A DNA stretch of 64,000 nucleotides, taken from contig OZ257142.1 in NCBI GenBank assembly GCA_965279035.1, positions 32,001 to 96,000 of the forward strand, written 5' to 3'. The notes under the pieces are model-generated. The model had not been told where the DNA came from. It ran no database searches and saw only the letters and a list, made by a program, of their open reading frames with translations. The translations under genes were made by a program, and so were the position numbers. The DNA comes from Bacteroidia bacterium. Its GTDB lineage: Bacteria > Bacteroidota > Bacteroidia > M30B66. Shown one piece after another: positions 47,220-50,636 of this stretch (positions are counted from its first letter, which is position 1; each line of letters begins with the position of its first letter).

Positions 47220-50200
47220 ATGGAGCCGAATTTCCGCGCGATTGAAAAAAAGTGGCAACAAACCTGGAAAGATGAGAAGCGTTATAAGACGAACATCGAT
47301 CTTTCTAAGCCCAAGTATTATGTGCTCGATATGTTTCCTTACCCATCGGGTGCTGGATTACATGTTGGACATCCGCTCGGATATATCGCATCAGATATCG
47401 TTTCGCGTTACAAGCGTCTGAAAGGATTTAATGTATTGCACCCTATGGGCTTTGATGCCTTTGGTTTACCTGCTGAGCAGTATGCTATTCAAACAGGTCG
47501 ACACCCAGCCGATACGACTGCCGAAAACATTGCTCGCTATAAAGAACAGCTAGGAAACATTGGCTTTTGTTACGATTGGGACAGAGAAGTTATTACTTCA
47601 GATCCAAGCTATCACAAATGGACACAATGGATTTTTCTTCAATTGTTTGGATGTTGGTTCAATTTAGAAAGCCAGAAAGCAGAAGACATTTCCAAGCTTG
47701 AAGCATTGTTTGCCAAAGGAGGAAGTGCTGCTGCAAAAGGAGCTTGCGGAGAACATGCCCCATTTAGTGCTGCAGAATGGAATGCCATGAACGAAGCTGA
47801 TAAGCGTGGAATTTTAATGCAGTATCGTTTGGCTTACCAAGATTTTAGCACCGTGAACTGGTGTGAAGCTTTGGGAACTGTATTGGCAAATGATGAAGTG
47901 AAAGATGGCTTGAGTGAACGTGGCGGACATCCCGTTGAAAAACGTCGGATGCGTCAATGGTTTTTACGCATTACAGCCTATGCTGAACGATTACTCAACG
48001 ATTTGGAGACACTCGAGTGGACCGATTCGATGAAGGAAATGCAGCGTAACTGGATTGGGAAATCGGAAGGAGCAAGTATTCGTTTTGAAGTTGCATCCGA
48101 TGACCTCACCCCTAGCCCCTCTCCGCGGGAGAGGGGGATGGATTCCGGTGTTGTTTCAGAGCCCGGGGTTGAATACCATCATGCAAACTCAAGTCAATGG
48201 AAACTTTTAATTCCACGTGCTAAGGAGATGAGGTCGAATATGACTGAATCTGAAAAAGCACTTTGGGAAGCACTTAGGAATTCTGCGATTGGATTGAAAT
48301 TCAGAAGGCAACATATTATTGATCAATTCATTGTTGATTTTGTTTGTCTTTCAAAAATGCTCGTTGTTGAAATTGATGGTAAAATTCATGACAATCAGAA
48401 GGAGTATGATGAAGGTAGAACAGCTGAATTAAATCGTTTAGGATTTGAAGTGATTCGTTTTGAAAATGAGGAGCTTGCAGAAAATCTTAGTGTTGTAGTT
48501 GATAAAATAAAATCAATCTGCGAATCTCGCCCTACAAGTACAATTGGAAATGACGCAATTTCAGTTGTAGAAGAATCTCAAGAAGAATACACTGCATCTC
48601 TCCCCTCTCCCCGAGGAGAGGGGTCGGGGGTGAGGTCAACAATGACCGATAAAACCAAAGTATCCCAAAATAAAAACGCAATTGATAGCAATCTCGAAAA
48701 TTCTCTCCCCTCTCCTCGAGGAGAGGGGCCGGGGCTGAGGTCAAAACACATTATTGAAGTCTTCACCACTCGTCCCGATACTATTTTTGGTGTTAGCTTT
48801 TTAACCCTTGCGCCCGAGCATGAATTGGTGTCGGTAATTACTACTGACGCGCAACGCGATGCTGTAAATGCCTATGTTGAAGTAGCTAAAAATAGAAGTG
48901 AACGTGAACGCATGGCTGATGTAAAACGCATCAGCGGGGAATTCACCGGAGCGTATGTTCTTCATCCATTTACAGGAGCTAAAATTCCGGTTTGGGTGGG
49001 CGATTATGTGTTGGCAGGATATGGAACCGGAGCGGTGATGGCTGTTCCTGCTGGCGATCAACGCGACTGGGATTTTGCAAAACATTTCAACCTTCCTATT
49101 CCTGTAATAAACGAAGGCGTTGATATTTCGGAAGCTGCTAATCCTACCAAGGAAGCAAAGATGATAAATTCTGATTTCCTCAATGGATTAACTGGATACG
49201 AAGCCTTGAAGAAAGCCATTGCTATTATTGAGGAACGAGGATTTGGAAAAGGAAAAGTGAATTATCGCTTGCGAGATGCTGGATTTAGTCGCCAACGCTA
49301 TTGGGGAGAGCCTTTCCCTATTGTGTATCGCGATGGTGTTGCTTATCCGCTTGCTGAAAACGAATTGCCTTTGGAATTGCCTGTGATGGCCGATTTCAAA
49401 CCGACTGGACAGCCCGAAAGTCCTTTGACCAAAGTGCCAGAATGGGTGAATGTACCGTCTGGAACACGTGAAACGGATACTATGCCGGGTTATGCAGGTT
49501 CTTCTTGGTATTTCTTGCGTTATATGGATCCGCAAAACAACACACGTTTTGTAGGAAGAGAAGCGGAAGAATATTGGCAAGATGTGGATTTATACATTGG
49601 CGGAACAGAGCATGCTGTTGGACATTTATTGTATGCACGTTTCTGGCAAAAATTCTTGTTTGATCGTGGGGAAGTGAGTAAAAACGAGCCATTCCGCAAA
49701 TTGATTAATCAAGGGATGATTTTGGGGCGTTCGAATTTTGTTTATCAGATAGTAGGTACATCCAAGTTCATTTCGAAAGATATGCTCGACGAATTCAAGG
49801 ATGAAAAAATCCTGCAAACGCACGTGGATGTGAACATAGTGCAGAATGATTTATTGAACCTCAACTCATTTAAAGCTTGGCGAGATGAAAATGCTCAAGC
49901 TGAATTTGTCTTGAATGCAGAAGGCAATTATGTGTGCGGTGTCGAGGTCGAGAAAATGTCGAAGTCGAAGTACAATGTGGTAAATCCTGACGATATCATC
50001 AATGATTACGGTGCGGATACCTTGCGATTATATGAGATGTTTTTGGGACCATTGGAGCAATTCAAACCATGGAATACCAATGGAATTGAAGGTGTTTATC
50101 GCTTCTTGAAAAAGTTGTGGAATTTGTACTTCGATGTGAATGGGCAGGTGAAACTAAGTGATGAAGCGCCAACAGAATCGGAGTTGCGCACCCTACATAA

Positions 50201-50636
50201 AACCATTCGTAAAGTAGAAGAAGACATTGAAAAATTCTCCTTCAATACTTCGGTGAGTGTGTTTATGATTTGTGTAAATGAACTAAGCGAACAAAAGTGT
50301 CGCAAACGCTCGATCCTTAAGGATTTAAGTATCATTATCGCACCCTATGCTCCTCACATGGCTGAAGAGTTATGGCAAGCTTGCGGTGGAGCTGGATCGG
50401 TTGTAGATGCTCAATTTCCGAAATGGAATGAGAGTTTCATCAAAGAAAGCTCGATCGCTTATCCAGTTGCATTCAATGGAAAAGTACGTTACCAAATTCA
50501 GGTAGCTGCCGATATGCCACAGGCTGAAGTACAAGCCTTAGCTTTAAGTCACGAAGATGCGGCTAAATGGTTACCTGAAGGCGGACCTAAGAAAGTGATA
50601 GTTGTTCCAGGAAGAATGGTAAACGTGGTGATTTAA
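47220..50636 (+). CDS. leuS: Leucine--tRNA ligase with an in-frame DUF559 insertion
   Basis: [31 protein letters not shown] and KMSKS motifs; ~214 extra residues between WIGKSEG..FEV and [10 protein letters not shown]. Confidence 0.96.
48101..48743 (+). mobile_element. Putative selfish element: DUF559 (Vsr-like) endonuclease flanked by palindromic inverted repeats, in frame inside leuS
   Basis: Left repeat 48101-48136, inverted right repeats 48597-48638 and 48702-48743. Core reads [46 protein letters not shown]. Confidence 0.75.

Follow-up and report, generated by a model that had tools for sequence, protein, structure and literature searches.

In the 64,000-nucleotide stretch of a Bacteroidia bacterium genome considered here (contig OZ257142.1, positions 32,001 to 96,000; below, the window), the leuS gene, encoding leucyl-tRNA synthetase (LeuRS), contains a 642-bp cassette in which a nuclease frame is bracketed by GC-rich, hairpin-forming repeats. 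The predicted product of the cassette is an additional domain tethered to LeuRS, and the cassette likely persists and spreads, among alleles of leuS and of other housekeeping genes, as a non-splicing homing-type selfish element; we put the probability of this explanation at about 0.55. A selfish unit that does not splice and resides in loops of essential genes had been proposed earlier from the letters of the window and its open reading frames (below, the sequence-only reading). The recurrence of the cassette, the existence of an empty allele, the preservation of the ends at the DNA level and the conflict between the cassette and host trees agree with that proposal, whereas the co-divergence of the cassette and leuS in the window's own clade does not.

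The order of elements in the cassette is an inverted triplex-motif hairpin, a stop-less frame of a DUF559 Vsr-like nuclease, and two further triplex-motif hairpins. The features, in window coordinates, are as follows.

47220-50636, + strand: leuS, leucyl-tRNA synthetase, one open frame through the insert, 1138 aa
48101-48742 or 48102-48743, + strand: the cassette, 642 nt or 214 codons, in frame and stop-free
48104-48136, - strand: left end, a triplex motif in the inverted orientation, translated as an 11-residue peptide; its parts on the + strand are the complement of the third strand (48104-48112), a 3-nt linker, the pyrimidine arm (48116-48124), the loop GCG and the purine arm (48128-48136)
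48189-48527, + strand: DUF559 / Vsr-like PD-(D/E)XK nuclease domain, with the Pfam match at 48216-48521 and no stop codon of its own
48602-48635, + strand: right end, copy 1, formed by the pyrimidine arm (48602-48610), the loop CCGA, the purine arm (48615-48623), the linker TC and the G-rich third strand (48626-48635)
48639-48701, + strand: spacer between the right-end copies, 21 codons, part of a 105-nt duplicated unit
48707-48740, + strand: right end, copy 2 (outermost), formed by the pyrimidine arm (48707-48715), the loop TCGA, the purine arm (48720-48728), the linker CC and the third strand (48731-48740)

The host gene is a recognisable LeuRS. Seven Pfam families are listed for its product at E<=0.01, covering the LeuRS catalytic, editing and anticodon-binding domains, with DUF559 between the catalytic and editing ones, and it has the HIGH-type (HVGH) and KMSKS motifs, neither of which varies in alignment A1. 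The cassette site is an 8-residue loop after ...RF, leading into the CP1 editing domain. The interval from WIGKS to TTRPDT comprises 233 residues in the window gene vs 19 in the cassette-free LeuRS of the relatives, and the insert adjoins invariant host residues, F289 on one side and T517, R518, P519, D520 and T521 on the other. The insertion was initially described as 643 nt long; it is in frame, as stated, but its length measured against the empty allele described below is 642 nt (214 codons). The GC content is 0.32-0.35 in the nuclease core vs 0.40-0.49 in leuS. In an independent assembly of the organism's own runs (X1), the depth of the insert equals that of the flanks. No Hint or intein family is found among the seven Pfam families, and the residue after the insert is K (I in the relatives), not C, S or T, in agreement with the earlier statement that intein splice residues are absent. 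A search of Rfam with the cassette yielded no intron or other family at the gathering score.

The DUF559 domain (PF04480) had been recognised as complete from the sequence, and Pfam bears this out: it matches residues 333-434 with E=3.8e-35 and 120.5 bits (cut-off 20.6), covering profile positions 6-108 of 109. The domain also matches PDB entry 3hrl, a solved DUF559 protein, with E=6.5e-19. The motifs D...E.DG..H, RRQH and RF.N are present, and translation returns the DF...VEIDG..H residues and the end peptides just as they had been quoted. We take the residues of the D...E.DG..H motif to be catalytic. Among 128 LeuRS-borne copies with the mean identity of about 45%, a set gathered by similarity and hence favouring intact copies, the D, E, D and H residues are kept in 127, 128, 126 and 126, respectively, and W, RRQH and RF.N are kept as well. 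The ratio of nonsynonymous to synonymous divergence (dN/dS) is 0.09 in the nuclease core and 0.02-0.04 in the host leuS. The nuclease residues are thus under purifying selection.

Occupied, empty and remnant alleles

The leuS gene from a Flavobacteriales metagenome-assembled genome (locus L005) is 90.9% identical to the window gene over 2775 nt, and the gaps in this alignment total exactly 642 columns. The LeuRS body of L005 is 97.3% identical to that of the window, the values for the occupied relatives being 95.7, 94.6 and 92.1%. Since the L005 body is closer to the window than that of any occupied relative, L005 is an empty allele nested among the occupied ones. An alignment of leuS from relatives had been suggested at the outset as the way to find such alleles, and it has thus produced one. 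On both sides of the insertion each 30-nt bin of the alignment is 80-100% identical, and about 45 nt of the loop are unalignable; the L005 loop is not a simple deletion product of the window's loop.

When proteins of LeuRS size were searched with residues 270-530, there were 3190 hits, of which the best 120 are all LeuRS with PF04480; the names of their sources span Chitinophagales, Flavobacteriales, Cyclobacteriaceae, Pedobacter and Flavobacterium. Both anchor motifs are present in 111 of these best 120, with the insert between WIGKS... and ...TTRPDT. By this criterion, the same cassette fills the CP1 loop in more than 100 LeuRS of the Bacteroidota.

We then considered 79 leuS loci taken from species genomes, 75 of which retain both anchor motifs. 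As one of the six peptides used in the search belongs to the insert, the sample leans to occupied genes; with this bias, the 76 intervals (75 loci and the window gene) comprise 40 occupied, 16 intermediate (25-44 residues) and 20 short ones. Six of the 16 intermediate alleles have nuclease-free triplex motifs in the CP1 loop, and the remaining ten carry other small repeats or hairpins. Unrelated small inserts occupy this loop in other species. Among them are tandemly repeated heptamers at L072 and L075, a duplicated unit of 27 nt at L057 and a perfect stem of 19 bp at L065, and such inserts are also seen at L038 and L025. The CP1 loop of leuS is a general hot spot or a tolerant site.

In the genomes of five relatives DUF559 has one to five matches each, the best one always in leuS, the strict hairpin hardly occurs outside leuS, and in all five the cassette-bearing leuS is the sole strong LeuRS match. 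These genome-wide statements rest on the relatives' genomes and on run depth. In sludge and lake metagenome runs, occupied and empty-type contigs co-occur, a weak observation, as it rests on contigs and short sides.

Other genes carry the cassette too. A survey of DUF559 fusions in housekeeping genes, also suggested by the sequence-only reading, found it in frame in MetH, MetRS, UvrC, HsdR, Acs and others. Among 301 sampled Bacteroidota genomes, DUF559 is present in 145 at E<=1e-10, and among the matches listed (150 of 352), 46 are in open frames of 373-1484 aa. In-frame cassettes were confirmed by Pfam in UvrC, MetH (three loci), type I HsdR, acetyl-CoA synthetase (Acs) and at a second LeuRS site; for HsdR the confirmation concerns one locus, L107 and L110 being the same HsdR by translation. 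A profile built from 20 cores retrieved 4272 longer proteins at E<=1e-10. MetH prevails among the best 120 of them, the others being MetRS, LeuRS, an IleRS-like ligase, GHMP kinase, helicases of the RecG/PriA/UvrD type, HsdR/M/S, PurL and others, and some of these 120 come from Ignavibacteriales. One MetH has three internal DUF559 cassettes, and several proteins, a MetRS and a GHMP kinase among them, have two each (P0121, P0138, P0133). In loci of other hosts for which translations were available, the cassette also lies directly before strongly conserved motifs. In the LeuRS of L106 the cassette occupies the second site rather than the CP1 loop, and its nuclease is closest to that of a CP1-site cassette. 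Finally, free-standing DUF559 genes of 121-162 aa have similar hairpins just beyond the start and stop. The DUF559 family as a whole numbers 60,953 representative proteins at E<=0.001.

The phylogenies of the cassette and its host were compared using a cassette-core alignment of 107 rows, obtained from 128 after dropping near-duplicates and gappy rows. This alignment rejects the host topology, whether the latter is represented by FastTree host nodes with support of at least 0.99 (log-likelihood difference, dlnL, 366; p=4.7e-5 in the approximately unbiased, AU, test), by FastTree host nodes with at least 0.95 (dlnL 861), or by IQ-TREE host nodes with support of at least 95 in the Shimodaira-Hasegawa-like approximate likelihood ratio test (SH-aLRT; dlnL 857, p=1.7e-36). 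The cassette phylogeny therefore departs from that of the host gene. On 40 rows, host clade H1 (SH-aLRT 99) contains two distant cassette lineages; constraining H1 to stay together is rejected in the AU test (dlnL 51.3, p=0.004), the p-value for clade H0 being only 0.034. Both groups were chosen after the mixing of cassette types in them had been seen. In the DUF559 tree of 135 cores, LeuRS-site cassettes are separated from all other contexts by three changes, the shuffled mean being 21.6 and the shuffled minimum 17. The MetH and HsdR cassettes also cluster, and the second-site LeuRS cassette is placed beside a first-site one. To judge by this tree, the cassettes form host-site-specific lineages. 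The overall picture is one of prolonged vertical inheritance, interrupted now and then by replacement, by loss or by transfer from one allele of a site to another.

The ends of the cassette

The sequence-only reading called the insert palindrome-flanked. Its ends are inverted repeats, as the arms 48101-48143 and 48596-48638 (43 nt) are 77% complementary and the arms 48101-48138 and 48706-48743 (38 nt) are 76% complementary, but they are three-part triplex motifs rather than plain palindromes, and there are two copies of the right end (48597-48639 and 48702-48744), 105 nt apart and 93% alike. Each end has a 9-nt pyrimidine arm (CCCCTCTCC), a loop of 3-4 nt and a complementary purine arm (GGAGAGGGG), followed by a linker of 2-3 nt and a third, G-rich strand, which is a mirror image of the purine arm (GGGGTGAGG or a similar sequence). 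In the left end this layout is reverse-complemented, so that the third strands of both ends point outward. All three ends in the window have the architecture of a class II triplex motif, for which G*G, A*A and T*A are the allowed triads. Each right-end copy is translated as a 13-residue peptide reading LPSPRGEG(S/P)G(V/L)RS. Tandem Repeats Finder detected no array except a 7-nt stutter. The hairpin pattern has one match in 64 kb vs none in 100 shuffles, and the pattern of the purine arm with the third strand has three matches in 64 kb, all within the insert, again vs none in 100 shuffles.

BoxC, later named PIT and TMECO, are repeats of Escherichia coli shown to form class II purine-motif intrastrand triplexes in vitro (Holder et al. 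2015, PMC4666352). According to the available text of that paper, they are intergenic, occur in Enterobacteria and Cyanobacteria, have been tied to genomic rearrangement, and have no known function. Compared with Table 1 of the same source, the architecture of the cassette ends is the same and the letters are nearly so. By every sequence feature tested, the cassette ends are putative intrastrand-triplex motifs of the BoxC/PIT/TMECO type, and they are better read as local motifs of this type than as one long-range stem.

The third strand is not confined to the window. All compared loci pooled, there are 348 rows of perfect pyrimidine/purine hairpins, each hairpin giving one row per strand. A mirror third strand in which the allowed triads make up at least 88% accompanies 156 of these rows vs 1 of 348 random segments. 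The third strand covaries with the stem, that is, it differs wherever the stem differs between lineages. In the vicinity of 65 DUF559 cores there are 99 motifs, and in 77 of them the third strand points outward.

Of the 40 occupied leuS loci, 24 have the hairpin at both ends and 30 have it at one end at least. For the left end, the reading frame is 2 in 26 loci and 0 in four; for the right end, it is 0 in 17 loci, 2 in six and 1 in one. The left-end peptides that result are LTPNPSP or PHPQPLS, those of the right end GEGxGVR or RGxGGEV. Compared with L001 and L004, the synonymous difference (pS) of the linkers is 0.41 and 0.20, below that of the nuclease core (0.67 and 0.35), and their dN/dS, 0.45-0.48, is above that of the core. 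Given the prevalence of the hairpin, the use of three reading frames and the lowered linker pS despite the higher dN/dS, the conservation of the ends resides in the DNA rather than in the peptide. The opposite case, repeats conserved only as protein, had been considered in advance; what is seen is ends kept as DNA across three frames.

Folding by itself says little here. The 9-bp hairpins of single ends have energies of about -10 kcal/mol and z from -1.3 to -1.9, unremarkable against shuffles, and hence the case for structure at the ends rests on conservation and covariation. The left and right loops of one cassette are more complementary than loops of different cassettes (0.50 vs 0.31; 2 of 5000 permutations as high), a real but modest effect in 18 loci. 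In the AlphaFold2 model, built from a 72-sequence alignment, the LeuRS body and the DUF559 domain are modelled with the mean predicted local distance difference test score (pLDDT) of 82.3 for the whole; the DUF559 domain scores 66-87, and the translated ends, residues 295-320 and 454-508, score below 50.

The motif is also dispersed. The pattern GGAGAGGG-N2-5-GGGTGAGG occurs in 84 of the 301 Bacteroidota genomes, with up to 76 copies. In the X1 run, the depth rises from 171 in the gene to 1030-2374 over the ends, that is, 6-14-fold, and contigs break there (48094-48135, 48598-48765). The genome of the window organism therefore holds further copies of the motif outside the window; no other copy is present in the 64 kb.

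Several separate observations concern individual ends. Nuclease-free pairs of triplex motifs stand in frame in a fusion of MeaB and methylmalonyl-CoA mutase and, between the lobes, in a Res-type restriction helicase (L123, G003:C80, 1008-1115; L125, G001:C1, 1058-1144). In the HsdR genes L105, L107 and L110 (G131:C1:1928956-1929366), the right-end unit is amplified three to six times in tandem with the 78-nt spacing, all copies being translated (TYPSTTGRGAGGEGNTPGP...), and the copy number differs among the three near-identical genes. In close relatives from two lake runs of one study (X15, X23), the stretch between the right-end copies (48665-48730) is shorter, 16 nt instead of 64. In E. coli K-12 (NC_000913.3, 1349500-1352500; L122), a TMECO/BoxC motif is situated about 170-200 nt behind the stop of ycjD (b1289), a DUF559 gene, at 1706-1726 on the - strand; on the ycjD strand its orientation is that of the cassette right end. 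No second motif was found upstream of ycjD at up to three mismatches. Both right ends of the window (48601-48637 and 48706-48742) have sub-threshold Rfam matches to the whalefall-1 RNA (RF01762), 19.4 and 16.8 bits vs the threshold of 37, and the metagenomic whalefall-1 'RNA motif' may be the same DNA repeat.

Mechanism and alternative explanations

The proposed life cycle of the cassette has three parts. First, the insert would be harmless because the pyrimidine and purine arms are free of stops in the frames used and encode linkers rich in P, S, G, E and R that AlphaFold2 predicts to be disordered; the nuclease could then fold independently and LeuRS would stay functional. Second, cassette-free alleles, or else triplex-motif DNA, are the likely targets in which the nuclease makes a break or nick, and recombinational repair from an occupied allele would copy the cassette into the same site beside the invariant host motif. 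Third, recombination or slippage between two identical hairpins likely deletes the nuclease, leaving solo triplex motifs, and tandem duplication may add extra copies of the ends, as in the window. There is some background for the enzyme: a DUF559 protein has been reported to cause DNA damage in vivo in Caulobacter (PMC12907096, available text), and a homing endonuclease with the Vsr fold, I-Bth0305I, has been described (Taylor et al. 2011, PMC3239194, available text).

A considerable number of observations weigh against this explanation. The tolerance of the CP1 loop to unrelated repeats by itself explains a part of the site occupancy. In the window's own clade the cassette and leuS show similar synonymous divergence and co-diverge, and no pair was found with the cassette much more alike than the host; hence no recent transfer between lineages is documented. 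An insertion fixed in the clade and co-diverging with leuS had been named beforehand as the contrary outcome, and in part this is what is seen. Occupancy changes only four times on the host tree of 158 rows, in a sample biased to occupied genes, and the cassette tree of 40 chosen rows mostly follows the host clades (seven changes vs the minimum of five). A search for a single fixed insertion point showed that the junctions vary within the loop, with one to six residues on the left side and zero to nine on the right, which is not predicted by a single fixed site of cleavage and repair, and no target-site duplication was seen at the insert. The match of the nuclease domain to 3r3p, the Vsr-fold homing endonuclease I-Bth0305I, is marginal (E=0.069). 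Finally, the catalytic residues are kept in almost every copy, albeit in a sample that favours intact ones; this does not resemble the decay expected in the classical homing cycle, and a domain useful to the host could account for it as well.

According to one alternative, which we consider rather unlikely, the primary family is that of the triplex-motif repeats, similar to repetitive extragenic palindromes (REP) or miniature inverted-repeat transposable elements (MITE), and DUF559 is their helper nuclease, as RAYT is for REPINs; the cassette would then be a copy of the helper with its own substrates on either side, its position in leuS would be incidental, and the nuclease would act on motifs genome-wide rather than on empty leuS alleles. 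DUF559 is indeed found in 69 of 84 motif-bearing genomes vs 76 of 217 motif-free ones (odds ratio 8.5, Fisher p=1e-13), although this association ignores phylogeny and genome size and is partly circular, since each cassette brings two motifs; moreover, 15 of the 84 motif-bearing genomes, one of them with 21 copies, have no DUF559 at E<=1e-10. The hairpins flanking free-standing DUF559 genes, the nuclease-free motifs in frame in the MeaB-mutase fusion and the Res helicase, the rise of the X1 depth over the ends, pointing to further motif copies elsewhere, and the TMECO behind ycjD are all in favour of a helper. However, the strict hairpin is nearly restricted to leuS in the five relatives, and a helper acting genome-wide does not predict host-site-specific lineages of cassettes. 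We know of no strand-transfer chemistry in PD-(D/E)XK nucleases, which also counts against it. This alternative is compatible with the homing-type explanation, the two being not exclusive.

Alternatively, the insert could be an accessory domain of LeuRS, domesticated long ago and of use to the host, e.g. in repair or defence as a tethered nuclease, or in binding nucleic acids; it would be inherited vertically and sometimes lost. This would agree with the strong purifying selection on the nuclease domain, the co-divergence with leuS in the window's clade, the clustering of presence on the host tree with its four changes, and the residence of the cassette in the sole leuS of all five relatives. 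Still, we regard it as improbable: a cassette with the same DNA ends also occurs free-standing and in more than twelve unrelated proteins, up to three times in one, the ends are kept as DNA in three frames with synonymous change lowered, the host tree is rejected by the cassette tree, and there are both an empty allele nested among occupied ones and hairpin-only remnants.

The sequence-only reading also raised the possibility of looping-out, in which pairing of the distant inverted repeats in single-stranded DNA or mRNA would lead to skipping or excision of the cassette and to an ordinary LeuRS. This can hardly be upheld: in a single-strand RNA folding model of 48090-48755 the left end does pair with the outermost right end (-227 kcal/mol, z=-8.3 vs 20 shuffles), but all 128 full copies are open and in frame and the ends occur only in stop-free frames, a mark of selection on translation through the insert, there are neither Rfam families at threshold nor intein residues, and, by the available text of PMC4666352, the purine-motif triplex is unable to form in RNA. 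No sign of looping-out from DNA or RNA was observed, the X1 contigs being unable to show rare excised forms. The contigs of the only RNA run, X24, are short and belong to a relative, with 95% likeness to 48165-48415; they are uninformative on transcription or excision in the window organism, and the joints in this run with sides shorter than 30 nt are most likely other repeat copies.

Implications and comparison with known systems

A broader generalisation of the homing-type explanation is possible, and we offer it tentatively, with more doubt than confidence. Introns and inteins are two routes by which homing nucleases enter essential genes, and the cassette might represent a third one, that of simply being translated through. 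Its ends would be used doubly, as DNA, being a substrate or signal for the nuclease or recombination, and as codons, being stop-free disordered linkers in more than one frame. The BoxC/PIT/TMECO repeats might then be footprints and non-autonomous relatives of such cassettes, with DUF559 as their nuclease.

If this holds, a selfish nuclease gene can inhabit essential genes without splicing, harmless as an extra protein domain, and two orphans, DUF559 (about 61,000 representative proteins) and BoxC/PIT/TMECO, the latter known since the 1990s and still unexplained, would acquire a function and a partner enzyme. It would also explain many oversized genes for LeuRS, MetH, MetRS, UvrC and restriction enzymes in the Bacteroidota. 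Annotation pipelines label such genes inconsistently, sometimes as 'DUF559 domain-containing protein' instead of the host enzyme. In addition, the cassettes mark naturally tested permissive sites for domain insertion in the host enzymes, and the nuclease is a candidate tool enzyme, if it is specific for a site or structure.

No publication describing the cassette, or joining DUF559 with LeuRS, with the triplex repeats or with in-frame insertion, was found in a search that lay outside subscription journals and supplements. The words 'endonuclease', 'Bacteroidetes' and 'open reading frame' are absent from the available text of PMC4666352, and 'endonuclease' is absent from that of the review PMC10969869. 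As regards BoxC/PIT/TMECO, the TMECO repeats in the former text are intergenic, unlike the cassette ends, which are intragenic, translated and arranged as an inverted pair around a nuclease gene.

Homing endonuclease genes, such as those of inteins, group I introns and the Vsr-fold 'EDxHD' enzyme I-Bth0305I (PMC3239194), are similar to the cassette in many respects: a small nuclease gene resides in conserved, often essential genes beside invariant motifs, is patchy among close relatives, forms site-tied lineages with a phylogeny unlike that of the host, and encodes a Vsr-related fold. However, homing genes ride an intron or intein or stand between genes, whereas the cassette is read through as protein and is not removed; moreover, its ends are conserved triplex-motif DNA repeats, and homing elements have no such ends.

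Rickettsia palindromic elements (RPEs) and intragenic MITE-like repeats are, according to the available text of PMC10969869, short palindromic repeats in frame in housekeeping genes, translated at tolerated places, which is the likeness; the RPEs of that text have no enzyme, whereas the cassette repeats bracket a conserved nuclease gene. The cassette repeats, being pyrimidine/purine triplex motifs, are also of another sequence class and from another phylum. The nuclease-free motifs fit the general form of such in-frame repeats, and the full cassette, since it carries a gene, does not.

The REPIN/RAYT system is similar in that a low-copy gene of the nuclease type is flanked by inverted hairpin repeats that are also dispersed in the genome. 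RAYTs are HUH/Y1 transposases and lie between genes rather than in frame inside them, whereas the only domain of the cassette is DUF559, a PD-(D/E)XK nuclease.

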